64,000 nucleotides of DNA from an uncultured Candidatus Saccharibacteria bacterium (GTDB taxonomy: Bacteria > Patescibacteriota > Minisyncoccia > Phycocordibacterales > JACOZG01), in assembly GCA_964648765.1 (NCBI GenBank), contig CAZYLF010000001.1, positions 12,155 through 76,154 of the forward strand, written 5' to 3'. Positions 1-52,016 of this stretch are shown piece after piece. Both the position numbers and the translations under genes were made by a program. The first letter of the stretch is position 1. Each line of letters opens with the position of its first letter. Below the pieces are notes generated by a model. It saw only the letters and a list, made by a program, of their open reading frames with translations. It was not told the origin of the DNA and did not search any database.

Positions 1-51
1 CTGCGCCAGGCAGCAAAAGAACTATTGAAACAAACTTACTACGGAAGGAAT

Positions 52-2151
52 CTACGCGACAGCCAGAGCCTCCTCAATGTCGGCCGTCGAGCTCACCGGA
101 ACGATTTCCGCCCAGCTCACTCGCCGCAAACTGAGACTCGGCTCACCAAGTGAAGCAAGGCTCACAGTCTGCTCCATCTTGCCGGTCTTGCTATTCTTGA
201 CCGGTGTGGGAGTAATACCCTGGAACAGCTTGTTGCCGCTTTTCTCCATCGCAAACAGGATCAAGCGCTTAATGCAGCGCACCACCAGCAAACGCTTACG
301 CACTGCCTTGGCCTTCTCCTCAGCCTCTTCAAGTGCAGTCACCCGACTAAAGTCAGGGGTTGCCGCAACCTTAAATCCCTTGAGCTCATACTTAGAGGCC
401 GCTGCCGCGTAGCTGTCACTTGCCTCAACCTTAGTCCGCTCAGGATAAGATGGAGCAGTGCCCGTAGAAACGCGAAGCGCCTTCACTCGGGCATTGATCG
501 CCTTCTGCTCGGCCTCCAGCATGATCTCTTCCTTCATCAAATCAATAAGGCCAAGTCCCTTAGGGTTGGCCCATGAAGAAACAATCATCGGCAACACTGT
601 GAGGTCAAGCGTGAAGAGCTTAGTCTCCGAAAACCGGAGATTGTCAGCGATCACGCCCCACTTCTGACAAAGCTCAAAGGCCTTCTTTGTAAGATAGGCT
701 TCGAGAGTGTCTTGGTGGAGACTACCGTCTTTGATAATGACGTAGTTCCGGAAACGCTGTCCGTCAACCCACTTGCCGGTATCCTCATCCTGTTCCTCCA
801 CATCAACTTCCGTCTTCATGGAGAAATTGAATCGTTCCTGATTCGACTGAATCTCAGTCATCTTGATCTTGGCATTCGGCTTGGGACGCACACCTTTTTC
901 GATCACCGTGGCGGTGGTCTTTTGGTATGTGCCACGAGGGATGAATACGGTGCAATCTTCTTCAAGAAGCACCCGAAGTAAATTGACCACACAAGCGGCC
1001 TCACCAGCTCCGATAAACTTCTTGGTTGAGTAACGCTGACGGATACCCGTGTCGATAATGATTCGACGCAATTGATCCCCCACCTCGAGACGTTCTCGGT
1101 CGGTGTAAGCACTGCCCGCCATCATGCCAAGCATGTTCTGCCCAGCTTCCTGGAGAATCTTGGATGATGCAACCAGATCACCAGTTTGGAATGCCCACGA
1201 GGCAAACGCCAATGAGGCATCCAGCGCACCACCTTCAGACAAAGCCTTGGTGGTAATCGGTTCGGCATCAAACGCCTCGCCGTTCACCTTGCCACTCATG
1301 GTCAGGCTAGTTGTCCCGGTTGGGAGAACCACAAACAATGTGACCTCACCATCGTGGAGAGACCGGAGTGTTGCCACTCCATTATCCCCAACTCGATCCA
1401 CTTGCGGAGTTGCTCGGAGAACCATTCCTGGCTTCCCCTTGCCGCCCGTAAATGAAAGTTGCGCGTCAACAAAACTTGTTGCGCGACCAGTGGCCAGAAT
1501 ATCGCTAATCACCGGACCAAAAAGTCCGATGTCATTGATATGCCGATTAACACCAGTCCCACCATTTTTGCGAACGAGATCAGCCAGAAAGCTGGCATTG
1601 TAATAATTGCCGTAACCCAAAGTGGACAAGCTTGCGTCGTGGCTCAGACCCAAAGTTTGAGCATGTTCCACAGACTGCGCGACCTCTTCAGCCTCACTCC
1701 AACGAGAGGGTACGGGGCAACCATCAGTAAACAACATCAAATGATGTTGTAGACCACCAGCATTTTCCACACTCTCAATCACCCGCTCCAGACCTTCTGA
1801 AAACACGGTGTTGCTGAGAGTGTGAACGGCCCCAATTTCTTCAACCAGCTGCTTCTTCCCCCGAGCATCGCAGACCAAAGGACCAGCCAAAAGCTTGGCT
1901 TGGTCGTGACCGCTAAAGATAATGATCGAGGCCAGGTCAGCGGGATTCAACGTGCCGATGAAGGCTTGCAGATCCCTCTTTACCTGATTCAACGCCCAGG
2001 CCATCGAGCCTGAAACGTCCCACTGAAGTAGCCAATGTACTGGCCCAGCAGTTGGTGGCCGACTTGCCCTCAGAACGACTTTTGCCACCGTGTTACCGGT
2101 GGCTTTAAGAGTACCCAACTCGCAACTCACGACCTTCAGATCGTTCCTCAA
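52..2151 (-). CDS. vWA (von Willebrand factor A) domain protein, 699 aa, GC-rich foreign-looking gene
   Basis: N-terminal MIDAS-like motif DVSGSM (DxSxS) with downstream T and D residues typical of vWA. The ORF begins with TTG preceded by GGAAGGAG. GC is about 55 % against about 42 % for the neighbouring genes. The C-terminal approximately 450 aa were not recognised. Confidence 0.6.
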   Translation of the reverse strand: MRNDLKVVSCELGTLKATGNTVAKVVLRASRPPTAGPVHWLLQWDVSGSMAWALNQVKRDLQAFIGTLNPADLASIIIFSGHDQAKLLAGPLVCDARGKKQLVEEIGAVHTLSNTVFSEGLERVIESVENAGGLQHHLMLFTDGCPVPSRWSEAEEVAQSVEHAQTLGLSHDASLSTLGYGNYYNASFLADLVRKNGGTGVNRHINDIGLFGPVISDILATGRATSFVDAQLSFTGGKGKPGMVLRATPQVDRVGDNGVATLRSLHDGEVTLFVVLPTGTTSLTMSGKVNGEAFDAEPITTKALSEGGALDASLAFASWAFQTGDLVASSKILQEAGQNMLGMMAGSAYTDRERLEVGDQLRRIIIDTGIRQRYSTKKFIGAGEAACVVNLLRVLLEEDCTVFIPRGTYQKTTATVIEKGVRPKPNAKIKMTEIQSNQERFNFSMKTEVDVEEQDEDTGKWVDGQRFRNYVIIKDGSLHQDTLEAYLTKKAFELCQKWGVIADNLRFSETKLFTLDLTVLPMIVSSWANPKGLGLIDLMKEEIMLEAEQKAINARVKALRVSTGTAPSYPERTKVEASDSYAAAASKYELKGFKVAATPDFSRVTALEEAEEKAKAVRKRLLVVRCIKRLILFAMEKSGNKLFQGITPTPVKNSKTGKMEQTVSLASLGEPSLSLRRVSWAEIVPVSSTADIEEALAVA

Positions 2152-2243
2152 TTGTCACTTCTCCTTCCTTGATGTCAAAGATCTACAGCACGAGGGCAGC
2201 GCTTTGCTGACCTATAATTCGTGCTTAAATCCTCCCGCCTGAG

Positions 2244-2272
2244 ACCATAGCAGATAACTACATTTTAGTCAA
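2244..2272 (-). promoter_or_regulatory. putative sigma70-type promoter for the vWA gene (TTGACT, 17 nt, TATGGT)
   Basis: Reverse complement reads cccctaTTGACTaaaatgtagttatctgcTATGGTctc, about 90 nt upstream of the TTG start and SD. Confidence 0.4.
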
Positions 2273-2284
2273 TAGGGGGTAAAT

Positions 2285-3232
2285 CTAACTCTTTATTTCT
2301 GGAAAATATTTTTCGATATAGTTCACCACTTGGGAGTAGCCATTTTTATCTAACCATTCACGAGCAGTGGTAAAAAGACGTACTGCCTCGCAAAAATTTT
2401 CTTCATAATCTTTACCCCCTCCTTTATCATATTCTTTTGCGTAAGCCGTAATGTCACCAAGCTGATCAACTATCTCTTCCCACTCTTTTTTGTGTGGCAT
2501 CTTTTTTATTAAGTGCTCAAAAATATTATGAGCAATCTCGTGGGCAAGTGATCCAAGTGCATAAAGTTTAGATCGCTCAACTTGAGGGGTTAACGATAAG
2601 TACTCTAAACCTACCTCTTTTAATTTATTATCTTTGATGCCCTTGTTCTCTTTATCAAATTCTTGATTATAAATAACTACAGGTGTGGGTAATACATTCC
2701 CAGGGTCTACTAAAGTTATTTGTAATAGTTCGTTGGTGGTAATACTGTTCCAAATGCTATAGCTTTCCGCACGATAAATATATTCTTCAAAATGCTTCTT
2801 CTGTTCCAAGGAGAGTTGCCCTAAATACTTAACGAAGACTTCTTTGGGAATATAGTAATATCTCCCCGCAGGTAATCCAAGAAAATTATCTTCTTGAGAC
2901 TGATAGTAAACATCATTCAACCTAATCTTAATTGATGACACCAGTGCTTTACGTAAAATGTTCCCCTCGAAATGAGTATCGACAAACTCTCCCAACTCGG
3001 TATCAGTAAAAAGTTGTTCATCATTACTCTCAACAACAATCTCTGGCTCAGCAATTTTATCTAAAGTTTTTTTGTAAGGATAGAGCTCATTATTTTCAAA
3101 CTTTTTAACCAAATCACCCACTACCTCCATTACCAAACCAGTATTATCATATTGTTCAAATTCCAATCTCATTTCTTCCAAACTAATGGGAGGACTTTCT
3201 TGCTCCACAAACTGCTCCATCTTTAAATTCAT
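2285..3232 (-). CDS. hypothetical protein with HExxH motif (possible zinc metallopeptidase-like), 315 aa
   Basis: HEIAH motif (LGSLAHEIAHNIFEH) near the C-terminal third; otherwise unrecognised; AT-rich native composition. Confidence 0.45.
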   Translation of the reverse strand: MNLKMEQFVEQESPPISLEEMRLEFEQYDNTGLVMEVVGDLVKKFENNELYPYKKTLDKIAEPEIVVESNDEQLFTDTELGEFVDTHFEGNILRKALVSSIKIRLNDVYYQSQEDNFLGLPAGRYYYIPKEVFVKYLGQLSLEQKKHFEEYIYRAESYSIWNSITTNELLQITLVDPGNVLPTPVVIYNQEFDKENKGIKDNKLKEVGLEYLSLTPQVERSKLYALGSLAHEIAHNIFEHLIKKMPHKKEWEEIVDQLGDITAYAKEYDKGGGKDYEENFCEAVRLFTTAREWLDKNGYSQVVNYIEKYFPEIKS

Positions 3233-3237
3233 ATATA

Positions 3238-3603
3238 TTAAAGATTATCTAAAATAACTAAAATTTGCTCTGCCAGATCTTCAGTTTTCACACTCTGGCC
3301 AGCCATTAAAAGCGCTTCCTCAAGAGCGCTTATTCCTCTCGCCTTTTCTCTTGCCGAATCTAGACAAACTTTGGCAATCTTAATTTCAGCTTTTATATTT
3401 GCTCGGTTAGGGAGGTCTAAATCGTCGGGATTACTTTTAACTTCTTGATCTACTTCTGCGTGCACCCGATCAACATATTTTTGTAATAATATTTTTGTTG
3501 GTTCATGATCAACACCATTAGCACTGAGGGCCTCAACTACCATTCCTTCTAAAGCTCCAAAATCCTCAAGTGAATTAAATGATTCTTGTGACATAACTAC
3601 CAT
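3238..3603 (-). CDS. hypothetical acidic protein, 121 aa
   Basis: Uninterrupted ORF tightly packed between flanking genes; no recognisable motif. Confidence 0.4.
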   Translation of the reverse strand: MVVMSQESFNSLEDFGALEGMVVEALSANGVDHEPTKILLQKYVDRVHAEVDQEVKSNPDDLDLPNRANIKAEIKIAKVCLDSAREKARGISALEEALLMAGQSVKTEDLAEQILVILDNL

Positions 3604-3672
3604 TATAAGGTAAATATCACTAAATTGAGAAGTATAAAAAAACTCGGAGGAATAAAACCTCCGAGTAATTGC

Positions 3673-4347
3673 CTAGACCTCTAATTTACCCTCCCAAGGG
3701 ACAACCGATCGATCCAAAACCAAACGAGACTGGCCATTGGATCCTTGCACTCCACGGTAAATTGTTACGGAAGCGTTAGCGTAAACCTTTCCATTGTAGC
3801 GCGCTACTGCCTCCTCAATTGAAAAGTGTTCAATCAGACGCTGAAAAAGAATCAGCCAGTGCCCATGGACTACCATCATGACCTTCTTCCCACCATAATC
3901 TCGAAAGAGGGTGCCTAAGAAGCTGTGAATTCGTAATTCCACATCGGGCCAATTTTCTCCGCCTATCGGTCTATAATGATAAAGACCTTCTCGCTCCTTC
4001 CTGATAACCTCAAAAGGGAGAGACTTTTCTACTTGCTCTTGAGTCATCACATGCCAGATACCTCGCTGTGCTTCTGCAAGCCTTGGGTCCTCATAAATTT
4101 TTGCATCAGGAAACATCTTCCTCATGGTCTGCTTAGTGCGAATATAATATGAAGAGTAGTAAGCATCAAAACCTTCAGGAAACTCATCATTTAGGTAACC
4201 GCCTGTGATCTCTGCCTGTCGATCACCTAAAGAAGTAATCCCATATTTATGAGTTCCAACATCACACTCCGCACGCTCATCAGCAGATAAAACATTACCT
4301 TTAGATTCAGCGTGTCTTACTAAAACCACCACTTCCGGCCATGCCAT
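3673..4347 (-). CDS. histidine phosphatase superfamily protein (phosphoglycerate mutase-like)
   Basis: N-terminal LVRHAESKGN (RHG-type catalytic motif) and a C-terminal VVHGHWL-like segment typical of branch-1 histidine phosphatases. Confidence 0.6.
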   Translation of the reverse strand: MAWPEVVVLVRHAESKGNVLSADERAECDVGTHKYGITSLGDRQAEITGGYLNDEFPEGFDAYYSSYYIRTKQTMRKMFPDAKIYEDPRLAEAQRGIWHVMTQEQVEKSLPFEVIRKEREGLYHYRPIGGENWPDVELRIHSFLGTLFRDYGGKKVMMVVHGHWLILFQRLIEHFSIEEAVARYNGKVYANASVTIYRGVQGSNGQSRLVLDRSVVPWEGKLEV

Positions 4348-4351
4348 AAAA

Positions 4352-4801
4352 TTACTCCTGTTTAGCTACAATTTCTTCTCTCAACTTCATCCAGATTCTG
4401 CCCAGATGATTTTGTCCCTGGTGATCTGGACCACGACCCCAAAAGGCATCTTTGGGCGAATCTTCTATCATTTTCCGCTCTCCTGTTTTGATTAACTTTT
4501 CGCGGATATATGGATGCTGTTCGAGTTTAGCTCGCAAAATTTCCTCCATAATCGCCACATTCACCTCGTGCCAATCCGGCCGCTTTTGCTCGTCATACTG
4601 CTCAGCTATTTTTTTAGCCATATGAGCGGAAGTGGCCTTCCTAATCCCCTCCTGCAAAGTTGGGTGATTAAACTTGGCCGCTTGGTAAGCGTGTTCCGAT
4701 GTCGGCCAGAGTTTACCTCGCCATACTACGGCGAATGAGGCAAAGTTAGAGAACATGTAAAACGGACCTTCGTAGAATTTAACAGGCTCCAACGTTTCCA
4801 T
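4352..4801 (-). CDS. NADAR-domain (YbiA/DUF1768-like) protein
   Basis: Motifs FYEGPFYMFSNFA, WPTSEHAYQAAKF and LGRIWMKLR match the NADAR/YbiA family signature. Confidence 0.65.
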   Translation of the reverse strand: METLEPVKFYEGPFYMFSNFASFAVVWRGKLWPTSEHAYQAAKFNHPTLQEGIRKATSAHMAKKIAEQYDEQKRPDWHEVNVAIMEEILRAKLEQHPYIREKLIKTGERKMIEDSPKDAFWGRGPDHQGQNHLGRIWMKLREEIVAKQE

Positions 4802-5300: not shown

Positions 5301-5372
5301 GGTGCCTAGTGGGAATCGAACCCACAACGCCGCTTCCACAGAGCGGAGTTTTACCACTAAACTATAGGCACC
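5301..5372 (-). tRNA. tRNA-His (anticodon GTG) with extra 5' G(-1)
   Basis: Reverse complement folds as a cloverleaf. Acceptor stem is gtgccta/taggcac with an additional 5' G opposite discriminator C. Anticodon loop ctGTGga; T-loop ttcgatt. Confidence 0.8.
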
Positions 5373-5375
5373 ATA

Positions 5376-5897
5376 CTATTTATACGTTGGCGGCTCCTCA
5401 GTTATACCAGACTCGTGGTTAACGAGTCTAGCTAAAGCGTAAAGGAGAGACGACAAACGATTGAGATAAGCCATCGAATGCTCCCCCATTTTACGCACAC
5501 CTTCTTCGTTCACCTGCACCACTCGCCTCTCCGCGCGACGCGCCACGGTGCGCGCAAAGTCGAAGAGTGACGCTACTTCCGTACCACCAGAAACAAAGAA
5601 GGTTTTAATTGGTGGCAATTTTTTCTCCACTTCATCAATCACCGCTTCCACTGCCTTCACCTTATCTTCCGTCACGGTTTTGTCAGCTCCGGCAAGTTCG
5701 GCTTGAATGATAAAGAGAGTTTGCTGCACGCCGCCAATTAATTCCGCCTTAGCACTCTTAATTTTACAAAGTCCAAGCAAAGAATTAATTTCGTCTAAAG
5801 AACCAAGAGCCTCGGCAATAGCCGAGGACTTGGAAACACGTTGATCGCAACCAAAAGTTTTAGTTGTTCCACTGTCCCCTTTACGTGTGTATAGCAT
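5376..5897 (-). CDS. ATP:cob(I)alamin adenosyltransferase, PduO-type (MMAB family)
   Basis: N-terminal YTRKGDSGTT motif and overall length and helical composition typical of PduO-type adenosyltransferases. Confidence 0.7.
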   Translation of the reverse strand: MLYTRKGDSGTTKTFGCDQRVSKSSAIAEALGSLDEINSLLGLCKIKSAKAELIGGVQQTLFIIQAELAGADKTVTEDKVKAVEAVIDEVEKKLPPIKTFFVSGGTEVASLFDFARTVARRAERRVVQVNEEGVRKMGEHSMAYLNRLSSLLYALARLVNHESGITEEPPTYK

Positions 5898-5932: not shown

Positions 5933-6454
5933 TTATCGAGTGACTGAGATCGCTGTTGTGCTCTCAGCGTCACACGAGCCCACTGTTACAGAACCATTAA
6001 CACTTCGGCTCATGTAATAACCCGTACGAGCTGTTGTCCAACTACCTGAACCATTTGGATTAACTGGCATTTTGCCCAAATAACCTTCGTCTACAAGCGA
6101 TTGAAGATTTACACAATTTGCAGCTGCGGTAACGAAGGAACATCCAGTATCGCAAGCGGTAGTCGTTGTTCCATTACTGATTTGATAATTAGTGACCGGA
6201 TTAGTAACAACGGCGGATGGCCCAGTGCCAAAGAAACGTAAACCATAAGCATACGCTCCACGATTATCAACTTGGTCAACTTTAATAGCCGAGAGAATGG
6301 CGGTAACATCAGTCCAACGGCTAGCATCGCGTGCATCACGGAAGCGAGTTAAAGGATCTAGAGACACAAACACAACACCAGCCAAGATCGCAATGATCGC
6401 GATAACGATCAAAAGCTCAATTAAGGTAAATCCCTTCTTAAAATTTTTCTTCAT
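5933..6454 (-). CDS. type IV pilin (prepilin-type N-terminal cleavage/methylation domain), probable major pilin
   Basis: N-terminus MKKNFKKGFTLIELLIVIAIIAILAG is the class III signal peptide (G/FTLIE, Glu at +5) followed by a hydrophobic helix. Confidence 0.85.
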   Translation of the reverse strand: MKKNFKKGFTLIELLIVIAIIAILAGVVFVSLDPLTRFRDARDASRWTDVTAILSAIKVDQVDNRGAYAYGLRFFGTGPSAVVTNPVTNYQISNGTTTTACDTGCSFVTAAANCVNLQSLVDEGYLGKMPVNPNGSGSWTTARTGYYMSRSVNGSVTVGSCDAESTTAISVTR

Positions 6455-6536
6455 AATAATGTAAATTTTTAATAAATTAACCGACTAATTATCACTTGAT
6501 TCTACAATACTTGCGCCAAATGCCTAGTGGATAACG

Positions 6537-7622
6537 CTATTTAATGGGGATATATGGGTCTCGACTTAGTCTTTCGCCTTTTATCCCCCTCATGGCCAAA
6601 CCTAAAGCCTCTAGATACAAATGAGCCTCGCTAGAAAATAGCGACCGATGCTCACCAGCCTGCACCAGAATTGGCGCAATGATAGGTAAAATAGTTTTTA
6701 AGCGAAACTCTTGATTAAAATATTCTGCTAGGCCAGGTAAACGCGCCGAGCCGCCAGCAAGCACAATTAATTCTGGTGGCAAACCGGCATGCGCCGACCG
6801 GTCAGCAAAAGTTGCGCGCATGTCAGCTAAAAGTGGGGCTAATTCCTTTTTAATAATTTGCCCAACTTTTGCCTCCGGACCATTTAGACCATTTTTTATT
6901 TTTAAAGCTTCGGCAGTGGGAGTAGGGAGTTTAAGTTCCTTAGCGATAGCTCCAGTTAAAACATCCCCAGCAATCTGATTAACAAATGTGTAATAAAGTC
7001 CTGACGGTCCAAACAAAGCAATAAATGTTTGCCTTGCGCCAATATCCACCAAACAGATATTTTTTCTAGGATGACTTGGCTCTATCCCCCGCCAGGTAGC
7101 CACCGTTTCAAGTTCAAAGGCATTAACCTTAACATTAATTGATTTGAAAAAGTTATCCCAAGTGGCCACAGCATCACTGTCGGCCACCAAAATTAACACC
7201 CTGGCTTTACCAGTGGCATCATCGATAATTTTGTGTGACACAATTTGACGCGCCCTAGGTAATGGCACATGCTTTTCAGCCATTTCACCCACCAACTCTT
7301 TAAGTGCCAATTTATTTGTCACCACCGTTTCATCTGGCACAAAATAATGAGTATAAAAATGCCGCTCGGGTAAACCAAAAGTAAAAGTCTCGCCCGTCAT
7401 TGAGAGGGGTTTGGCGTTTGCTAAAGTTTTTAAAACAATTTCAGCTAAGCGCTTCTCGTCTTTAATTAATCCTCCCACCACCACGCCAGCCGGTATAATT
7501 TGCCGAGCTAAAGATTTAATTTTTAGAGTTTTACCACGCGCGGCCAGCGTCACCACCTCAATGGCACTATCTGAAATATCTATTCCAGCCGACTTGTTTT
7601 CTCCCCAATTAAAATTAAACAT
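6537..7622 (-). CDS. pilM: type IV pilus assembly protein PilM (actin-like ATPase fold), copy 1
   Basis: 361 aa; N-terminal GIDISDSAIEVV and later VDIGARQT segments typical of PilM/FtsA-like ASKHA fold; embedded among pilin genes. Confidence 0.7.
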   Translation of the reverse strand: MFNFNWGENKSAGIDISDSAIEVVTLAARGKTLKIKSLARQIIPAGVVVGGLIKDEKRLAEIVLKTLANAKPLSMTGETFTFGLPERHFYTHYFVPDETVVTNKLALKELVGEMAEKHVPLPRARQIVSHKIIDDATGKARVLILVADSDAVATWDNFFKSINVKVNAFELETVATWRGIEPSHPRKNICLVDIGARQTFIALFGPSGLYYTFVNQIAGDVLTGAIAKELKLPTPTAEALKIKNGLNGPEAKVGQIIKKELAPLLADMRATFADRSAHAGLPPELIVLAGGSARLPGLAEYFNQEFRLKTILPIIAPILVQAGEHRSLFSSEAHLYLEALGLAMRGIKGERLSRDPYIPIK

Positions 7623-11802: not shown

Positions 11803-12438
11803 TTATTTTTTATTGGGAAAGCGAAGAACGGGATTAGCGTCGCCACACAAAAGTCTGAGCTGGCGCAAGCGGAACACAACAATATCACTGGTCTCGTAGA
11901 GACAAGGAACGATCAGGCTGTTGTCCTCATCCCGCGCCACTGATTTCCAGGCATAGATCTCCTGGCGATTGAAATGCTCTCGGAAGAACTTAGTGCCCCG
12001 TTTCTTGATTTCCTCAAGATCGCGAAAGTTAAGACAACTCTCAAGCATATTTTGAGTCTTGATATGCTCGTAGAGATTGAGGCCTCCTATCGACTTATTT
12101 CCCTTCTGCTCCTCATGGAGCCAGCGTTCGAGTTTGAGAACATCAAACTCCTCAGGTCCAGCCTTCTCAAGCTCTGGATGAATAACTTCCTTCACCGATA
12201 AAGAATAGACGGGAGCTACAGTACGATCAACATAGATAATAGAGCTTGAATTTTTTCGGTTCTTTTTGGTAGGAGTTGTAACTTGAACCTTGGGCCAACA
12301 GGTTTCGCCACGAGCAAACTTTCGAAGCTCCTTTTTCCACCTTTCTCCATCAGTACCCGCCATGTTGACGAGGATTTGATTAAAGGTCCCCGCCTCCTCC
12401 CCCATAATTTGGAGTGCCTTGCTGAGCGTGCTATTCAC
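11803..12438 (-). CDS. hypothetical protein, 211 aa, inserted between pilC and pilB as an autonomous unit
   Basis: No recognisable motif. It has its own TTGACT-18-TATAAT promoter, an AAAGGAG SD and a hairpin terminator. GC is slightly higher than the pilus genes. Confidence 0.5.
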   Translation of the reverse strand: MNSTLSKALQIMGEEAGTFNQILVNMAGTDGERWKKELRKFARGETCWPKVQVTTPTKKNRKNSSSIIYVDRTVAPVYSLSVKEVIHPELEKAGPEEFDVLKLERWLHEEQKGNKSIGGLNLYEHIKTQNMLESCLNFRDLEEIKKRGTKFFREHFNRQEIYAWKSVARDEDNSLIVPCLYETSDIVVFRLRQLRLLCGDANPVLRFPNKK

Positions 12439-14241: not shown

Positions 14242-14619
14242 TTATTTTAAATATGTTTTCATTTTATCTACCACCTCGCCCATCTGCACGTCTGACTTTA
14301 CTAAATAATCCACCGCGCCAAGATTTTTAGCCTTCTCACGATCTGACTCCTGACCCAAATTTGAAAGAACCACTACTGGGATCTTAGCTAAATCTGCATC
14401 GAGTTTTAAAGCTTCAAGCACCTGAAAACCGGTCCGTTGGGGCATAATTAAATCAAGGAGAATAATGTCTGGATGCTCTTGAGTAATTAAATTAATGGCC
14501 TCCAAACCATTTGGCGCCTTAACCACCTGAAAACCCTCACGCTCAAGCTTGTCGCCAAGCGCCACAGAGAGAAATTTGTCATCCTCAGCCAAAAGAACCT
14601 TGTATTTTGCCTTTTCCAT
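14242..14619 (-). CDS. response regulator, receiver domain only (CheY-like)
   Basis: 125 aa. Acidic pocket (LLAEDD), phospho-acceptor Asp in ILLDLIMP, conserved T and K further downstream. No output domain. Confidence 0.75.
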   Translation of the reverse strand: MEKAKYKVLLAEDDKFLSVALGDKLEREGFQVVKAPNGLEAINLITQEHPDIILLDLIMPQRTGFQVLEALKLDADLAKIPVVVLSNLGQESDREKAKNLGAVDYLVKSDVQMGEVVDKMKTYLK

Positions 14620-14636
14620 AAACCTTATAATAACAG

Positions 14637-15767
14637 TTAGGAGAGCGCTCGGCTACCTGTTTTACGCTCCATCCCCGAGAGGGGTAGGGTGACGTAAAAA
14701 GTGGTGCCCTTGCCCTCGAGTGAGTCAAACCAAATCTTGCCGCCAGAATTCTCTACGATTGATTTAATTATATAAAGCCCTAAGCCCGTGCCCTCAGCGT
14801 CGGTTTCTCTAATATTGTCGGCGCGGAAGAGTTTGGTAAAAATCTTCTTTTGATCGTTAGTGGGGATACCATAACCTGAATCACCTACTCTGATCAGCAA
14901 AAATTCATCGGCCAAACTTATGGCAATCGTCACCAAACCATCTTGGGGTGTGTATTTAATTGCGTTAGAAAGTAAATTTTGGAAAATCATCCGCGCAAGT
15001 TTTTGATCCAGATTAACTTTAGGCACATCTGGGGCATAAACTTTTTCAAGCTTAATTTTTTTAGCTTCCACGGCTGGAGCAAGCTCAGTGAGCACGCTCT
15101 CAGCCAGCTCACTCACATTGGTAGGCTCTGGCTCCACCAAAAAAGTACCAAGCTCCAAACGCGATACGTTTAATAATGAGTTAACTAAATCCACCATCCG
15201 TTTATTGGAATCTGAAAGATTTTTTAAATATTCTTTTTGTTTATCATTTAAACCGCCAACCTCTTGGCTCAACATCGCCTCGGCATACCAACCAATTGCC
15301 GAAAGTGGAGTTTTAAGTTGATGCGATGCAAGCGAAACGAATTCTGTTTTGGCCCGATCCACATCACGCTCTTTAGTAATATCACGGAAAAGTAAAATTG
15401 CCCCAGTAACTTCTGCTTTTTCTAAAAGTGGCGCGGCCATTAATGAAACTGGGTAAATTTGGTCTTGGCGATTTTTGAGTGAAATGTTGTCGAGCAGCGT
15501 GAAAGTGATAATGTTTTTATCAATCATCGCGCGCTCATGAGGTGTTTCAGTTTGCGGAATATCCTTGCCGTCTTTTTGCAAAAATAAAATCTCGTGGATA
15601 TTTTTGCCCATCGCCTCGGCCGGAGAAAGACGGAGCAAAATGCCCGCGGCTTGGTTCATGATTATTACCTTCCGAGAAGTGTCCACCGCAATTAAACCTT
15701 CCGCCATAGAAGAAAGGATGGCGTTTAATTGGTCTTGTCGAGCATGAACTTCATCCATTTGGCTCAT
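14637..15767 (-). CDS. sensor histidine kinase, cytoplasmic, with PAS-like N-terminal region
   Basis: H-box SHQLKTPLSAI (HisKA) and a HATPase_c region with the G-boxes DSGYGIP and GTGLGL. No TM segments. The N-terminal approximately 150 aa are PAS-like. Confidence 0.75.
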   Translation of the reverse strand: MSQMDEVHARQDQLNAILSSMAEGLIAVDTSRKVIIMNQAAGILLRLSPAEAMGKNIHEILFLQKDGKDIPQTETPHERAMIDKNIITFTLLDNISLKNRQDQIYPVSLMAAPLLEKAEVTGAILLFRDITKERDVDRAKTEFVSLASHQLKTPLSAIGWYAEAMLSQEVGGLNDKQKEYLKNLSDSNKRMVDLVNSLLNVSRLELGTFLVEPEPTNVSELAESVLTELAPAVEAKKIKLEKVYAPDVPKVNLDQKLARMIFQNLLSNAIKYTPQDGLVTIAISLADEFLLIRVGDSGYGIPTNDQKKIFTKLFRADNIRETDAEGTGLGLYIIKSIVENSGGKIWFDSLEGKGTTFYVTLPLSGMERKTGSRALS

Positions 15768-15785
15768 TATAGCCTACGCGCGAGC

Positions 15786-15838
15786 AAAAAAAAATGCGCC
15801 CCGATCCAAAAGCTTGGACCAGGGCGCGGGTTTTCTTG
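15786..15838. terminator. bidirectional rho-independent terminator
   Basis: GC-rich hairpin gcgccccgatccaaaagcttggaccagggcgc with an A-run on the 5' side and a T-run on the 3' side. Confidence 0.55.
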
Positions 15839-42293: not shown

Positions 42294-42340
42294 AAACAAA
42301 ACAGGGGCGAATGCACAAGTGCATCCGCCCCCTTTTTTTT
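42294..42340. terminator. bidirectional rho-independent terminator between the desaturase and the island gene
   Basis: Hairpin ggggcgaatgcacaagtgcatccgcccc with CTTTTTTTT on plus and TGTTTTGTTTTT on minus. Confidence 0.6.
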
Positions 42341-42986
42341 ACTCGCCTCTCTGGTGGGCTTTCCCCACGTCCAGTCCCGAACGAAGCTTCCTCTTTTTCT
42401 TTGTGGCCTCCTGCACCAACGATCGCGGATCTGCGCAGTGCACCCACGTGCCACCATCCCGAGACTGCGCGTCAGGCTTGTAGCGTTCCCACTTCAGGCC
42501 ACCCATCTCGGAGAGCAGCATTGAGCCGTCACTCGTCTCCAGAGCGGTGAGGTGGATGTCGTAGCCAGCCTTCTCAGCGAGCTGCCATAACGTCACTCCC
42601 TCAACAGGTGTGAGGGGTGAGAAGTCCAACCCCTCATCCAGCCCTTCCATCACGAGCGACACCCGAAAGGTGCCGAAGGCGCGCTTGGCATACTCACCAA
42701 CAAATGCCCAGCGCTCCGCACGGAGCTTGCCGTCACCCGAAGGTTCCCCCTCAATGAAGACGACGGTCTTCCCGACCATGTCTTCGTTCACATCCGCTGC
42801 CCCATGGGCAGAAATGTGAATTTTGGGCAGGGCGTACTTCCGATCTGGCATTACCCGACCGTAGGTCTTCTTGTGAAGACCGAAAATGAGCTGCGTCTCA
42901 GCCTCGTAGGCAAAGACAAGTCCACGGTCCGCCAAAACCTTGGTGATTGTTGCCACACGCACTCGGCCGTTCTTCTTGCCCAACAT
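42339..42986 (-). CDS. hypothetical protein family A, copy 1 (215 aa; beta-rich N-terminal region, Lys/Arg-rich C-terminal tail), GC-rich island
   Basis: Start at internal ATG with GGGAGA SD. It shares VxV.T..T..A.GL and GKT.V(V/F)I segments with the 201-aa neighbour. GC is about 60 %. Confidence 0.55.
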   Translation of the reverse strand: MLGKKNGRVRVATITKVLADRGLVFAYEAETQLIFGLHKKTYGRVMPDRKYALPKIHISAHGAADVNEDMVGKTVVFIEGEPSGDGKLRAERWAFVGEYAKRAFGTFRVSLVMEGLDEGLDFSPLTPVEGVTLWQLAEKAGYDIHLTALETSDGSMLLSEMGGLKWERYKPDAQSRDGGTWVHCADPRSLVQEATKKKRKLRSGLDVGKAHQRGE

Positions 42987-43057
42987 AATAGTTCTCCCAT
43001 ATCTCAATGTTCACTTTAGGGGGGGCGACAATCGCCTACTCCATTTGTTTGTTTCCG

Positions 43058-43093
43058 ACTTACATCCTACACTATTTTAAACTAAAAGTCAAG
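43058..43093 (-). promoter_or_regulatory. repeated promoter module, copy 1 (TTGACT, 17 nt, TAGGAT)
   Basis: 36-nt sequence acttacatcctacactattttaaactaaaagtcaag is identical to 43848-43883. Reverse complement is cTTGACTtttagtttaaaatagtgTAGGATgtaagt. Confidence 0.5.
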
Positions 43094-43100
43094 TACTAAT

Positions 43101-43145
43101 TAAACAAAAAAATGGGTCGGTCAATGTTTTCACATCAACCGGCCC
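43101..43145 (-). terminator. hairpin terminator after the 201-aa gene (ggYcggt...aaccggcc family)
   Basis: Imperfect 13-bp stem ggtcggtcaatgt/acatcaaccggcc, followed on the minus strand by a T-run. Confidence 0.5.
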
Positions 43146-43184
43146 GGCATTTGGCCCCCGCCATTTGCCTACCCCCTTTGAGAA

Positions 43185-43790
43185 CTACTTAGCCGCACCC
43201 ACCGCCGCCCGCTCACGTTGAAGCCTACGCAACTTCTTCGTCTTCGCCGGTCGGAGGTAGAAAGGACGAGCATTCTTCCTATTTCCGTCGGGTGGAACCA
43301 TGATCACCTGTCGACCCGAACGCGACAGCTCCTTCCAATCAAGCTCAATTGCTCGCTCCAAGCTTGGCGGTTTCAGACAATCTTCTTCATCACGAACCTT
43401 CTTGAGCATGGCTTGTTCCGCTTCAATGCGCTTCAGATTCTTCTCAACCTGAAACATCTCGCGATCACACTCCATCACAAACTCAAGCTGATCGGTTCGC
43501 GCTGACTCGAACTGTCCCAAGTGACACCAGCCAGTGGCGCTTGGGTTCTTCTTTGCCGCGTCTTCGGCCGAAACCGAGGCGATAACGACAATGGTCTTTC
43601 CGGCCACGGGCGGGACAATCTCGTCCCCATGAACTTCCTGAAATGAGAGGTTGCCCTTTCCCCAATCGAAACTGACGTCACGACAACCCAGCTGCCCGAA
43701 CCAGTACTCGACACCATTCGCATCAACGGCTTTGCCCCAAAAGAGGCCATTTGCAGCTGTCACTACCGTTCTGACTGTCACATTGAACAT
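43185..43790 (-). CDS. hypothetical protein family A, copy 2 (201 aa; basic C-terminal tail), GC-rich island
   Basis: ATG with GGAGAAAG SD. N-terminal VTVRTVVTAANGLFWGKA and AGKTIVVIASV segments parallel the 215-aa protein. C-terminus RPAKTKKLRRLQRER. Confidence 0.55.
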   Translation of the reverse strand: MFNVTVRTVVTAANGLFWGKAVDANGVEYWFGQLGCRDVSFDWGKGNLSFQEVHGDEIVPPVAGKTIVVIASVSAEDAAKKNPSATGWCHLGQFESARTDQLEFVMECDREMFQVEKNLKRIEAEQAMLKKVRDEEDCLKPPSLERAIELDWKELSRSGRQVIMVPPDGNRKNARPFYLRPAKTKKLRRLQRERAAVGAAK

Positions 43791-43847
43791 CGCTTTCTCC
43801 GTAAAGATCTGCCCATTATCTCCACCACACGGCGAAGATTTATATCA

Positions 43848-43883
43848 ACTTACATCCTACACTATTTTAAACTAAAAGTCAAG
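43848..43883 (-). promoter_or_regulatory. repeated promoter module, copy 2 (identical 36-mer)
   Basis: Exact duplicate of 43058-43093, placed about 60 nt upstream of the 201-aa gene start. Confidence 0.5.
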
Positions 43884-43892
43884 GGGTAATGA

Positions 43893-43934
43893 GGTAAAGA
43901 AATAGGCCAGTTAGTGTCTTCACACTAACTGGCC
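43893..43934 (-). terminator. hairpin terminator after the 175-aa gene
   Basis: Perfect 13-bp stem ggccagttagtgt/acactaactggcc with cttc loop. The trailing T-run is modest. Confidence 0.45.
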
Positions 43935-43957
43935 CGTCCGCACTCTGCGGGGCTATA

Positions 43958-44485
43958 CTAGCCAACCAATTCGGCAAACTGACTGAGCAGCTCCTGACTC
44001 TGCGCCTGGAGCTTCTGCTCCCCTTCTTCCTGCGCCGCTTCGAGATTTTCAACGAGCTCCCAGTACAACTTGGACGCCTCGTCCAGATCGAACGTTTCGC
44101 CAGAGACGTACTGTTCCAGTTCCCACGCCATCTGGCGAATGTCGTTGATGTCGTCCTCACTTACATTTTGGAGATCATCAATCGCAACTTTCAAGTTCGG
44201 AATCGTCGATGACCTCAGGAATTTCACCTGCTTGTTTCTGAAATGCTGCGTCACTTCGACGAGCACATCAACCGCGCGCTGCGGCGCAGTCCCCCACAGC
44301 GTGACGACATCCTTAATCTTCTGTTTGATGTCTGCCGTAAGTATGAAATGCCGAAATCGCGAGCGGCCATCACCCACCTCTTCACCTTTGAGATCCCTCC
44401 CCGTGGCCTTCTCAATCTCCACCTTGAGTGTATTGAGAAGCCCAGTGAAAAGTGCAACGGTTGGTACAGTGTTTGGTCCTGCCAT
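43958..44485 (-). CDS. hypothetical protein family B, copy 1 (175 aa; helical, acidic C-terminus), GC-rich island
   Basis: Start at internal ATG (MAGPNTVP) with AGGAGA SD; the tracked 5' extension would run through its own promoter. Homologous to the 193-aa neighbour (TLWGTAPQRAVDVLVEVTQHFRNKQVKFLRS vs AQWGEGKSEEAVETLRNAESHFKRQQVAYLRA; C-termini QELLSQFAELVG vs QSLVEQFADIM). Confidence 0.55.
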   Translation of the reverse strand: MAGPNTVPTVALFTGLLNTLKVEIEKATGRDLKGEEVGDGRSRFRHFILTADIKQKIKDVVTLWGTAPQRAVDVLVEVTQHFRNKQVKFLRSSTIPNLKVAIDDLQNVSEDDINDIRQMAWELEQYVSGETFDLDEASKLYWELVENLEAAQEEGEQKLQAQSQELLSQFAELVG

Positions 44486-44544
44486 GTGATTCTCCTTCCA
44501 AATCAAGTTGCTTTTGCAGTGCCGAAGTGACACTACCTGCAGTC

Positions 44545-44576
44545 CATTATACACGAATCAAGATATTTGTCAAGCC
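44545..44576 (-). promoter_or_regulatory. repeated near-consensus promoter, copy 1 (TTGACA, 16 nt, TATAAT)
   Basis: Reverse complement gcTTGACAaatatcttgattcgtgTATAATgg. Matches 45301-45332 with one mismatch. Confidence 0.55.
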
Positions 44577-44600
44577 CCCCCCTTCACACGGGTCGCTTTT

Positions 44601-44645
44601 GGGACAAATGAAAAGGCCGGTTGATGTTTTTAATACCAACCGGCC
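44601..44645 (-). terminator. hairpin terminator after the 193-aa gene (ggccggtt...aaccggcc)
   Basis: 9-bp perfect stem ggccggttg/caaccggcc, extendable to about 12 bp with one mismatch, plus flanking T-rich run on the minus strand. Confidence 0.5.
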
Positions 44646-44659
44646 CGGCTATTGCCTAG

Positions 44660-45241
44660 TTACATGATATCAGCAAACTGCTCGACCAGGGACTGGCCCT
44701 GGTTTGCGAGCGCCGCCTGCTTTTGGGCCTCGCTCTGCTGCTCGCGCTGCTTGGCCGCCTGCGCTTGCGCCTTCTTGCGATCGGCGTTCCGCTTCTCCTG
44801 AGCGGTGACGGCAGCTTCGCAAGTGTCGACAATCACCCAGTAGTCCTTCGACGCCTTGGTGACATCCACATTCTTGCTTTCAACCGCGCACGTGTCCAAC
44901 GCTTGGAGCAACAATCGGGCCGGATCGAGAAGATCATTCTCGACACCCTTGGTCGAAAGCTCCGCGATGAGCGATGCTAGCTTCTCCGTCGCGTGGGCCC
45001 GCAGGTACGCAACCTGTTGGCGCTTGAAGTGACTCTCCGCATTTCGGAGTGTTTCAACCGCCTCCTCGGACTTCCCTTCGCCCCACTGCGCGGCCGCCGT
45101 CCGGATCTTCTCCCGGATCTTGAACGAGAGTTCAAATCCAACAAAGCACGGGCGGCCACCATTGGCGCCAACTGCGGCGATGATGACAGCTTTGAAAGCC
45201 GCCATCATTTCACAAAACTGCTTGTAGGTAACGCTGACCAT
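44660..45241 (-). CDS. hypothetical protein family B, copy 2 (193 aa; helical, Gln/Ala/Lys-rich acidic C-terminal region), GC-rich island
   Basis: ATG with GGAGA SD; paralogue of the 175-aa gene; about 65-70 % GC. Confidence 0.55.
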   Translation of the reverse strand: MVSVTYKQFCEMMAAFKAVIIAAVGANGGRPCFVGFELSFKIREKIRTAAAQWGEGKSEEAVETLRNAESHFKRQQVAYLRAHATEKLASLIAELSTKGVENDLLDPARLLLQALDTCAVESKNVDVTKASKDYWVIVDTCEAAVTAQEKRNADRKKAQAQAAKQREQQSEAQKQAALANQGQSLVEQFADIM

Positions 45242-45300
45242 AATTCGTCTCCTCTATCTCAACGAACGTTCTGAGGTGCCGCATTGACACCATCTACCTA

Positions 45301-45332
45301 CCATTATACACGAATCAGGATATTTGTCAAGC
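45301..45332 (-). promoter_or_regulatory. repeated near-consensus promoter, copy 2 (TTGACA, 16 nt, TATAAT)
   Basis: ccattatacacgaatcaggatatttgtcaagc lies immediately 3' of the polA stop, upstream of the 193-aa gene. Confidence 0.55.
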
Positions 45333-51008: not shown

Positions 51009-52016
51009 ATGTCAAGCACTAAACCAGAGAAAGATTGGTTCCTCGATAGCGCTCTCCGGCCCGCTATTTGGGACGAATACATTGGCCAAACTCATATAAA
51101 AGACAACCTAAAGATCTTACTTTCAGCCGCGCGCGAGCGTTCACACCCTCCAGAACATCTCCTCTTCTACGGACCGCCAGGATTAGGCAAAACCACCCTC
51201 GCCCACCTTATTGCTAAGGAAATAGGCGCTCAAATCAAGGTCACCTCCGGCCCGGCAATTGAACGGGTTGGGGATTTGGCCTCAATTTTGAGTAATTTAG
51301 CCGCTGGCGATATCCTATTTATTGACGAGGTCCATCGCTTGAACAAAACTATTGAAGAAGTGCTCTACCCAGCGATGGAATCTGGGACCCTCGATATTAT
51401 CATTGGTAAGGGTCCGGGCGCAAGGGTAATCCAACTTGACCTCCCCGCCTTCACCCTAATCGCCGCCACCACGCGCGTGGCCCTACTCTCCTCACCTTTA
51501 CGCTCACGCTTTGGTGGTGGGACCTTCCGACTTGAGTTTTATACCCCTGATGAGCTGATGCAAATCGTGAATCGCTCGGCCAAAATTTTAAATATCACGG
51601 TGACTCCTGAAGCGGCAAAGATAATTGCCGAGCGCTCACGCTTTACTCCGCGCTTAGCCAACCAACTCCTCAAACGCTGTCGTGATTATGCTCAAATGCA
51701 AAAAAAAGATATGGTGGATGAGAGCGTTGTAAAAAATACTTTGAACTTAATGGGTGTGGACGAGCACGGCTTAAACGGCGCCGACAGGCAAGTGCTCCAA
51801 ACCGTGATTGAGAAGTTTGGTGGCGGACCAGTGGGTTTGGGCACGATCGCTGCCGCCACGAGCGAGGAGGAAGCGACGATTGAAGAGGTTCATGAACCCT
51901 ATCTCCTCCAACTCGGTTTTATTGAACGCACCCCCCGCGGCCGACTCATCACCAAAAAAGCCTATGACCATCTTGGCTTTGATTACCCTAAAGATAGGCA
52001 AGAAAAATTATTGTAA
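51009..52016 (+). CDS. ruvB: Holliday junction branch-migration ATPase RuvB
   Basis: AAA+ Walker A GPPGLGKTTLA; Walker B ILFIDEVHRL; sensor motifs; C-terminal winged helix. Confidence 0.9.
   Translation: MSSTKPEKDWFLDSALRPAIWDEYIGQTHIKDNLKILLSAARERSHPPEHLLFYGPPGLGKTTLAHLIAKEIGAQIKVTSGPAIERVGDLASILSNLAAGDILFIDEVHRLNKTIEEVLYPAMESGTLDIIIGKGPGARVIQLDLPAFTLIAATTRVALLSSPLRSRFGGGTFRLEFYTPDELMQIVNRSAKILNITVTPEAAKIIAERSRFTPRLANQLLKRCRDYAQMQKKDMVDESVVKNTLNLMGVDEHGLNGADRQVLQTVIEKFGGGPVGLGTIAAATSEEEATIEEVHEPYLLQLGFIERTPRGRLITKKAYDHLGFDYPKDRQEKLL

Follow-up and report, generated by a model that had tools for sequence, protein, structure and literature searches.

The window, a 64,000-nucleotide stretch of contig CAZYLF010000001.1 from an uncultured Candidatus Saccharibacteria bacterium, carries at its left edge a gene (52..2151) encoding a 699-aa protein with a von Willebrand factor A (vWA) domain. 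The gene and all the features described for it lie on the reverse strand. It is compositionally foreign to the genome in which it resides, stands alone as a transcription unit and belongs to a two-module protein family whose main reservoir is large lytic phages. This report describes the gene, the modules of its product and its cellular and phage relatives, and weighs the roles that may be attributed to it.

The coding sequence, taken from the list of open reading frames (ORFs), is that of a real gene, as seven full-length homologs match its product at 43–58% identity and with E values down to 1e-257. Its TTG start is credible given that the nearest upstream alternative, a GTG at 2158, is out of frame, and the N-termini of the homologs lie no more than four residues from the position of the TTG. 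A Shine-Dalgarno (SD) sequence, GGAAGGAG, can be read 8 nt 5' of the start codon (2160–2167), and a consensus scan locates a sigma70-like promoter, TTGACT-17-TATGGT (2272–2244), with the -35 hexamer at 2272–2267 and the -10 hexamer at 2249–2244, the latter extended by a TG just 5' of it. An earlier sequence-only reading of the stretch had pointed out the TTG-initiated 699-aa ORF, the strong SD and this promoter, all of which are present. The promoter is plausible, not statistically distinctive: the scan returned four promoter-like sites in the gene region versus 2.0±1.3 expected, which is no significant enrichment. A second promoter-like site, TTGACA-16-GACAAT (10 of 12 matches), lies at 2151–2178 and overlaps the SD and the start codon.

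The 5' untranslated region (5'UTR) of about 86 nt has no significant structure (fold z -0.96) and gave no match in an Rfam search, on which grounds a riboswitch or otherwise structured leader was rejected. Downstream of the stop codon, the first bases of a strong intrinsic terminator occupy positions 1..14 of the window and the element continues past its left edge. Folding of positions 12101–12205 of L001, a copy of the locus that reaches 10 kb further left, yields a hairpin (12138–12187) with a free energy of -37.3 kcal/mol (z -6.7) and, after it, a U-run. With its own promoter, SD, coding sequence and terminator the gene is a complete monocistronic unit, in agreement with its earlier description as an isolated single-gene unit. 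Neither a signal peptide nor a transmembrane (TM) segment was found in the 699-aa protein (maximum KD19 hydrophobicity 1.43, without an N-terminal hydrophobic segment), which indicates that it is cytoplasmic.

Two modules of the vWA protein

The N-module comprises residues 1–373 (1033..2151) and, judging from an AlphaFold model and Foldseek comparisons, resembles ArnB and the Sec23/Sec24 core. The vWA domain proper, delimited from Pfam and from the secondary structure of the model, spans residues 38–224 (1480..2040). As the sequence-only reading had recognised, it carries an intact MIDAS (metal ion-dependent adhesion site), D45-V-S47-G-S49 (2005..2019), which is completed by T115 and D143; D45, S47, S49, T115 and D143 are conserved in 100% of 49 cellular and phage members of the family. 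The Pfam match itself is borderline (VWA_3 at residues 45–199, E 4.2e-6, 27.3 bits against a cut-off of 27), while homologs match PF00092 and PF13519. The fold is confirmed by the best Foldseek match in the Protein Data Bank (PDB), the Catenulispora vWA protein 4fx5 (E 8e-21); the ArnA–ArnB complex 8s05 (E 5e-18), the ArnB paralog VWA2 (5a8j), ITIH1 and many Sec23 and Sec24 chains were also retrieved.

In the full-length model (predicted local distance difference test, pLDDT, 79; inter-module predicted template-modelling score, pTM, 0.49) two strands (residues 5–14 and 21–29) precede the vWA domain, six or seven strands (225–296) follow it and four helices (306–373) come next; a low-confidence linker (369–376) then leads into the C-terminal alpha/beta region. 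Strands of a beta-sandwich are hence predicted both before and after the vWA domain. The same arrangement, a beta-sandwich that the vWA domain divides and that is followed by a helical bundle, has been reported for ArnB, and this core recurs in Sec23/24, 4fx5 and Escherichia coli YfbK (PMC12852372). The Foldseek alignments to ArnB and 4fx5 extended along the whole chain, that to ArnB over about 415 columns, and the Pfam model ArnB_C gave no match. These comparisons point to a predicted N-module of the ArnB or Sec23/24-core type. The large unrecognised C-terminal region of the sequence-only reading therefore shrinks to residues ~377–690, as residues 225–373 would form the ArnB-type beta-sandwich and helical bundle.

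The C-module, residues ~377–690 (82..1023), is an uncharacterised alpha/beta module defined from stand-alone homologs and from the model. Modelled alone it reaches a pTM of 0.81 and a pLDDT of 84. A Foldseek search of the PDB gave no fold match (best E 0.06, TM score at most 0.15), and neither a search of PDB sequences with a family hidden Markov model nor a comparison of 18 C-module members with Pfam models produced a match. The only BFVD entries that matched are a 361-aa protein of Bacillus phage SP-15 (TM score 0.80) and a 751-aa phage fusion. Homologs of about 340 aa that consist of the C-module alone start at FIGxG, the motif found after the linker, and occur in phages as well as on cellular-looking contigs (L037–L040). 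The C-module is thus autonomous and matches no known domain. Among 71 sequences, Y409, N442, S444, R468, D475-G476, Y569 and R625 are invariant or nearly so, and these residues make up a compact polar cluster that would be compatible with a binding or catalytic site. The isoelectric point (pI) of the module, ~8.5–9 in the window protein, was considered as a hint of nucleic-acid binding and set aside as uninformative, since it is inconsistent across the family (5.8–9.1).

Several stand-alone genes deserve mention for their surroundings. On a T4-like phage contig (L035) such a gene (6001–7005) directly follows Mre11/Rad50-like genes (Metallophos and AAA_23). In Bacillus phage SP-15 and Listeria phage LIS04 a SpoIIID-like regulator lies upstream of it and PhoH three genes downstream; stand-alone genes were mapped to 4920–6005 of L045 and 4956–6002 of L046. 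The LIS04 product is annotated as 'VWA domain-containing protein' though it has no vWA part. No vWA gene lies beside the stand-alone genes in the loci examined, and the idea of a split gene was rejected, as the ORFs adjoining the SP-15 gene do not encode vWA proteins.

Foreign composition, solo context and phage relatives

The vWA gene is compositionally foreign. Its GC content is 52.8%, versus 42.8% for the whole window and 35.4% for the adjacent 315-aa ORF; the sequence-only reading had put it at about 55%, a figure that is too high, while its description of a foreign gene abutting AT-rich ones stands. The excess is largest at synonymous sites, where GC at third codon positions (GC3) is 17 points above the host (0.57 versus 0.395±0.053 in 51 host ORFs, z=3.3), and is seen as well at first and second positions (GC1 and GC2). 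Relative synonymous codon usage (RSCU) correlates with that of the host at r=0.23 only, versus 0.67–0.88 for host ORFs longer than 500 aa, and the step in GC content falls at the borders of the gene in L001. The gene was probably acquired horizontally, and we infer both the direction and the recency of the transfer.

The sole other ORFs of the window with such a composition are the four cassettes of an island at 42300–45330, which encode proteins of 222, 201, 198 and 193 aa with GC3 values of 0.59–0.73. Each island gene has a strong sigma70-like promoter to itself, two of which are perfect TTGACA-16-TATAAT sequences, while TTGACT-17-TAGGAT occurs twice; promoter-like sites number 7 versus 0.8±0.9 expected, and hairpin terminators separate the ORFs. 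The codon usage of the island correlates with that of the vWA gene (r=0.55) and not with that of the host (r=-0.06), and the shared one-promoter-per-gene design and codon usage uphold the likeness in architecture that had been noted between the two. The proteins of 198 and 193 aa are paralogs of each other (29% identity), and a PHROG search with the island proteins gave no match. A direct link between island and vWA gene was dismissed: none of the other vWA loci encodes an island protein, and what is common to both is composition and promoter style only. The island looks like an array of self-expressed foreign cassettes, and together with the vWA gene it suggests that the host genome collects such cassettes.

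The exact 699-aa protein is present on five contigs, one of them of 553 kb. The additional 10 kb available to the left of the window in L001 encode HD_4, UVR-like, DUF5670 and SWIB proteins, pyruvate kinase, an aminoacyl-tRNA synthetase (aaRS) fragment and others, without any AAA+/MoxR gene or component of a ternary system, and extension through L041 likewise gave no AAA+/MoxR partner, so that the proposal that partners may lie beyond the edge did not hold. The flanks of L001 are cellular, with type IV pilus (T4P) genes, tRNA-His, pyruvate kinase and aaRS. Models of defence systems in PADLOC had no match, nor did an NCBIfam search return one.

Eleven independent cellular-type loci were compared (L001, L002, L006, L042–L044, L048 and L050–L053), and the vWA gene is the only one that they share, the exception to their lack of synteny being one pair (L050/L051). 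The neighbours include MurG, prolyl-tRNA synthetase (ProRS), a DEAD-box helicase, DnaX, CorA and a type I restriction-modification system, which identifies the cellular context as ordinary chromosome. In seven of the eleven (L001, L002, L006, L042, L044, L048, L053) the gene is 6–13 points richer in GC than its flanks, with steps at the borders; the contrast is mixed in L050 and L052 and absent in L051 and L043, the latter a contig of 62% GC in which the homolog is compositionally at home. The cellular copies mostly start with TTG or GTG. Some 30 phage loci likewise have no conserved neighbour, and as no gene other than the vWA gene is conserved across cellular and phage loci the protein appears to work alone, contrary to the suggested pairing with an AAA+ ATPase.

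Individual loci showed further features. On the JGI contig of one homolog (P0005) a 491-aa AAA/nSTAND3-like gene lies 2.2 kb downstream, which makes it the sole homolog locus with an AAA-type gene nearby, and a TROVE/Ro60-vWA gene lies 5 kb upstream (coordinates 3090–4799 and 14313–15788 of its listing); neither is conserved in the other loci. The Candidatus Peribacteria contig L006 holds a second GC-rich ORF of 717 aa (474–2627), divergent to the vWA homolog. It was considered as a partner and discarded, being non-homologous to the vWA protein, absent from the other loci and without a Pfam or PHROG match. The AT-rich flank of this contig (29–35% GC) codes for a SocA/Panacea antitoxin-like protein (5372–5881).

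Word-indexed searches had returned only the seven full-length relatives and one distant one. An exhaustive profile search extended the family to 199 cluster representatives at E ≤1e-30, which fall into three groups: query-like proteins of 677–711 aa, many proteins of 700–780 aa, and proteins of ~340 aa matching only profile positions ~370–685. In the PHROG library the 699-aa protein corresponds to phrog_2426, whose function is not annotated (E 3e-30, over three stretches). By tblastn, 203 deposited phage genomes (143 of Salmonella, 17 of Escherichia, 29 of Rhizobium, 10 of Bacillus and four others) gave alignments spanning residues 34–560 at 22–25% identity; the Salmonella and Escherichia phages inspected are Kuttervirus and the one Rhizobium phage inspected is an Innesvirus. 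A scan of IMG/VR added 28 loci on contigs of 5–358 kb, most longer than 80 kb. Among 185,579 GTDB species representatives, a pattern-limited scan found one locus, on a Candidatus Peribacteria contig. The main reservoir of the two-module family is large lytic phages, among them Bacillus jumbo phages besides Kuttervirus and Innesvirus.

The phage orthologs are 719–775 aa long and their GC content tracks that of the phage genome. Their neighbours encode ribonucleotide reductase, helicases, a clamp loader, a ligase, an exonuclease and proteins of related function, and no structural genes appear among their top neighbour families. The family is occasionally labelled 'magnesium chelatase' in phages (PMC9409062), a label that reflects the vWA domain only. 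In the searchable literature no functional study of the vWA/phrog_2426 family was found; the family appears there in annotation tables and in one low-count virion mass-spectrometry entry. In a distance tree (neighbour joining, midpoint root, drawn without bootstrap or other support values) cellular and phage sequences form two separate clades, which implies that the cellular copies were not captured recently from the phages sampled. These copies make up a sister lineage, yet in most of the genomes that carry it the lineage behaves like foreign DNA.

Other ORFs of the window also depart from its mean composition. The 315-aa ORF and a 121-aa ORF (2285–3603), directly upstream of the vWA promoter, are unusually AT-rich (GC 35–38% versus the window mean of 42.8%) and may be non-native as well; the former has an HEIAH zincin-like motif and a weak SprT-like match (E 1.6e-3). 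Two ORFs at 51009–52016 and 11803–12438 have mildly raised GC3 values (0.52 and 0.51 versus the host mean of 0.40).

Possible roles and origin of the gene

The observations are best accommodated by a single-gene transcription unit acquired horizontally by an AT-rich, small-genome bacterium, probably of the candidate phyla radiation (CPR) type. Its product would be a soluble cytoplasmic protein whose invariant MIDAS is expected to bind Mg2+ and, through the metal site, to engage an acidic or phosphorylated residue on a partner protein, the C-module providing an effector or a second binding surface. Acting without an AAA+ chaperone, it would most likely serve in phage–host conflict as an adaptor or stoichiometric binder, with some broadly conserved component of the cell or the phage as its target. 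The phage gene would be of the early or middle class, with a part in host takeover or DNA metabolism, and the bacterial one a retained 'moron-like' copy with a role, for example, in exclusion or defence. The family would then belong to a pool of phage–host conflict and DNA-metabolism accessory genes, from which the bacterium keeps an imported copy since it is useful. This overall picture, in which a protein-binding adaptor that depends on Mg2+ and acts alone was acquired horizontally from the phage–host conflict pool, is held with about even confidence; its functional part, a binding and conflict role that we infer, is much less certain.

A number of points weigh against it. The cellular copies form their own long-branched clade apart from the phage copies. 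The AlphaFold models derive from shallow alignments (8 and 15 sequences) and the packing of the modules is uncertain, as reflected in the inter-module pTM. No mobility gene accompanies the vWA gene, no tRNA adjoins it, no terminal direct or inverted repeats were found at its ends and no homolog was detected among 72,556 plasmids, so that nothing of this kind accounts for its movement as a single gene. A search for an empty site by exact lookup of the flanking 315-aa protein returned only contigs that carry the insertion. Finally, the GC excess may be partly intrinsic, as phage orthologs tend to lie a few points above their own genomes.

Several observations would suit a native, vertically inherited gene whose GC excess stems from amino-acid composition or from expression-linked codon bias: the deep clade that the cellular copies form among themselves, the intactness of the gene and its conservation at full length, the raised GC1 and GC2 values and the slight GC surplus of phage orthologs over their own genomes. 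Both the composition at synonymous sites and the absence of synteny nevertheless disfavour this explanation, which is quite unlikely, given the GC3 excess, the low RSCU correlation with the host, a genomic position that differs in every genome, sharp GC edges, a very sparse occurrence of the family in cellular genomes and the restriction of such composition, within the window, to the island cassettes. No housekeeping fold with conserved synteny emerged for the C-terminal part and the composition remained unlike that of the genome, so that what might have overturned the sequence-only reading did not materialise.

As to function, the adaptor reading includes as a sub-case, and not as an exclusive rival, a DNA-metabolism factor built on the Ku70/80 plan (vWA, beta-rich domain, helical arms); its C-module would attach to DNA ends or to another nucleic acid, and partners would be recruited by the vWA domain. 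Stand-alone C-module genes and the phage orthologs do occur among genes of replication, recombination and nucleotide metabolism, as on the T4-like contig L035, the invariant Tyr, Asn and Arg cluster would be compatible with binding of phosphate or nucleic acid, and the C-module of the window protein is mildly basic. Against this, no Ku, OB or nucleic-acid-binding fold was matched in the PDB, no Ku beta-barrel DNA-binding core follows the vWA domain, the pI varies within the family and a gene neighbourhood in large phages is weak evidence, which leaves the Ku-like role unlikely. A pilus-associated or surface adhesin, PilY1-like or pilus-tip-like, could be imagined from the T4P genes (PilM, pilins, T2SSF) that lie 3.5–10 kb upstream in L001, from the T2SSE ATPase that follows the homolog in L043 and from the pilus adhesins PitA, SpaC and Mfa5 listed by Foldseek. 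These adhesins match because they share the vWA domain, however, and the protein has no signal peptide, prepilin motif, sortase signal or TM segment; the sampled flanks of nine of the eleven cellular loci are devoid of pilus genes, the linkage is not conserved and the phage orthologs are cytoplasmic-type early or middle genes. Neighbourhoods and the lack of export signals thus contradict an adhesin, which is very improbable, and the adhesion role once suggested for the gene fares accordingly.

The sequence-only reading had also raised an AAA+ partner or a role in defence, and the gene could in principle encode the vWA component of a MoxR–vWA ternary conflict system (VMAP/iSTAND type) whose AAA+ partner lies just past the edge. 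In these systems the vWA domain of the component is extended by a long non-vWA region at the C-terminus (Kaur et al., 2020; PMC7159879), an organisation that the window protein shares, and both probably stem from a conflict-related gene pool; the AAA/nSTAND3-like gene on the P0005 contig points in the same direction. The window gene is solo, however, with no MoxR, VMAP, iSTAND, FtsH or beta-propeller component, no AAA+ gene within 10 kb in L001, no conserved neighbour in the cellular and phage loci and no PADLOC match, and its C-module is constant across the family, not variable as in the ternary systems. The neighbourhoods contradict such a system, which is the most improbable of the roles considered.

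Returning to the adaptor reading, a bolder form of it would make the C-module a new fold and domain family that, with the ArnB-like module, constitutes a single-chain counterpart of ArnA–ArnB or Sec23–gelsolin; hundreds of large phages of Proteobacteria, Firmicutes and other hosts would use it as a solo device that captures a universally conserved cellular factor through the MIDAS, and small-genome, CPR-type bacteria would repeatedly have taken in a sister version as self-expressed, GC-rich single-gene cassettes that serve in conflicts of their own, with phages or with hosts. Taken as a whole, this extension is doubtful.

What was known is the kind of protein that the vWA half represents and the cataloguing of the family as phrog_2426 or 'VWFA domain-containing protein'; the dissection into two modules, the ArnB/Sec23-24-core assignment, the autonomous C-module and the cellular sister clade with its likeness to GC-rich single-gene imports are new. 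A family of ~700-aa proteins with no known function, present in the 203 deposited phage genomes (mostly Kuttervirus-type phages of Salmonella and Escherichia, a group under study for phage therapy and biocontrol), thereby gains a two-module anatomy, with an invariant metal site that can be mutated and an autonomous C-module with few invariant polar residues; the evidence also indicates that neither a chaperone nor an operon partner takes part in its action. The cellular sister clade, usually richer in GC than its flanks and placed differently in each genome, illustrates in compact form how single genes flow horizontally into reduced genomes. Current views are not overturned by these findings.

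Comparison with known systems

Among characterised proteins, the closest likeness of the N-module is to ArnB and ArnE (vWA2) of Sulfolobus acidocaldarius (8s05, 5a8j) and to 4fx5, with which it shares the predicted three-part organisation, the MIDAS and a cytoplasmic location (Foldseek E 8e-21 to 6.5e-15, TM score normalised to the target 0.57–0.59). Sequence identity is only 14–16%, however, and the ~320-aa C-module is fused to the vWA protein and not to ArnB. An ArnA-type partner (zinc finger and forkhead-associated, FHA, domains), a kinase or a phosphatase is likewise missing near the vWA gene, both in the L001 flanks and in the eleven cellular loci. The core of the coat protein complex II (COPII) components Sec23 and Sec24 displays the same order of vWA trunk, beta-barrel and helical domain, followed by a further globular domain, which is gelsolin-like in those proteins and whose position is held here by the C-module. 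Unlike them, the vWA protein has no zinc finger or zinc-finger cysteines, its C-module matches neither gelsolin nor any other PDB fold, the full-length TM score is only ~0.3, and the gene is prokaryotic or phage-encoded with no Sar1, Sec13 or Sec31 context.

For the C-module the counterparts are gp285 of phage SP-15 (361 aa) and gp28 of LIS04, predicted to have the same fold as residues 377–690 (TM score 0.80, E 1e-23) at 28–32% identity; they have no vWA module and no adjacent vWA gene, and are likewise uncharacterised. Over its whole length the protein is best compared with phrog_2426, represented in Kuttervirus (Ackermannviridae), Innesvirus, Bacillus phage BpSp and uncultured large phages, whose profile it matches over both modules. 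The phage proteins are homologous and of similar length, have an identical MIDAS and the same C-module signature, and are always encoded by a solo gene. The window gene differs in being part of a cellular chromosome and not of a phage genome, in grouping with a separate clade of 677–711-aa proteins, and in being foreign to its own genome, whereas the phage copies match theirs.

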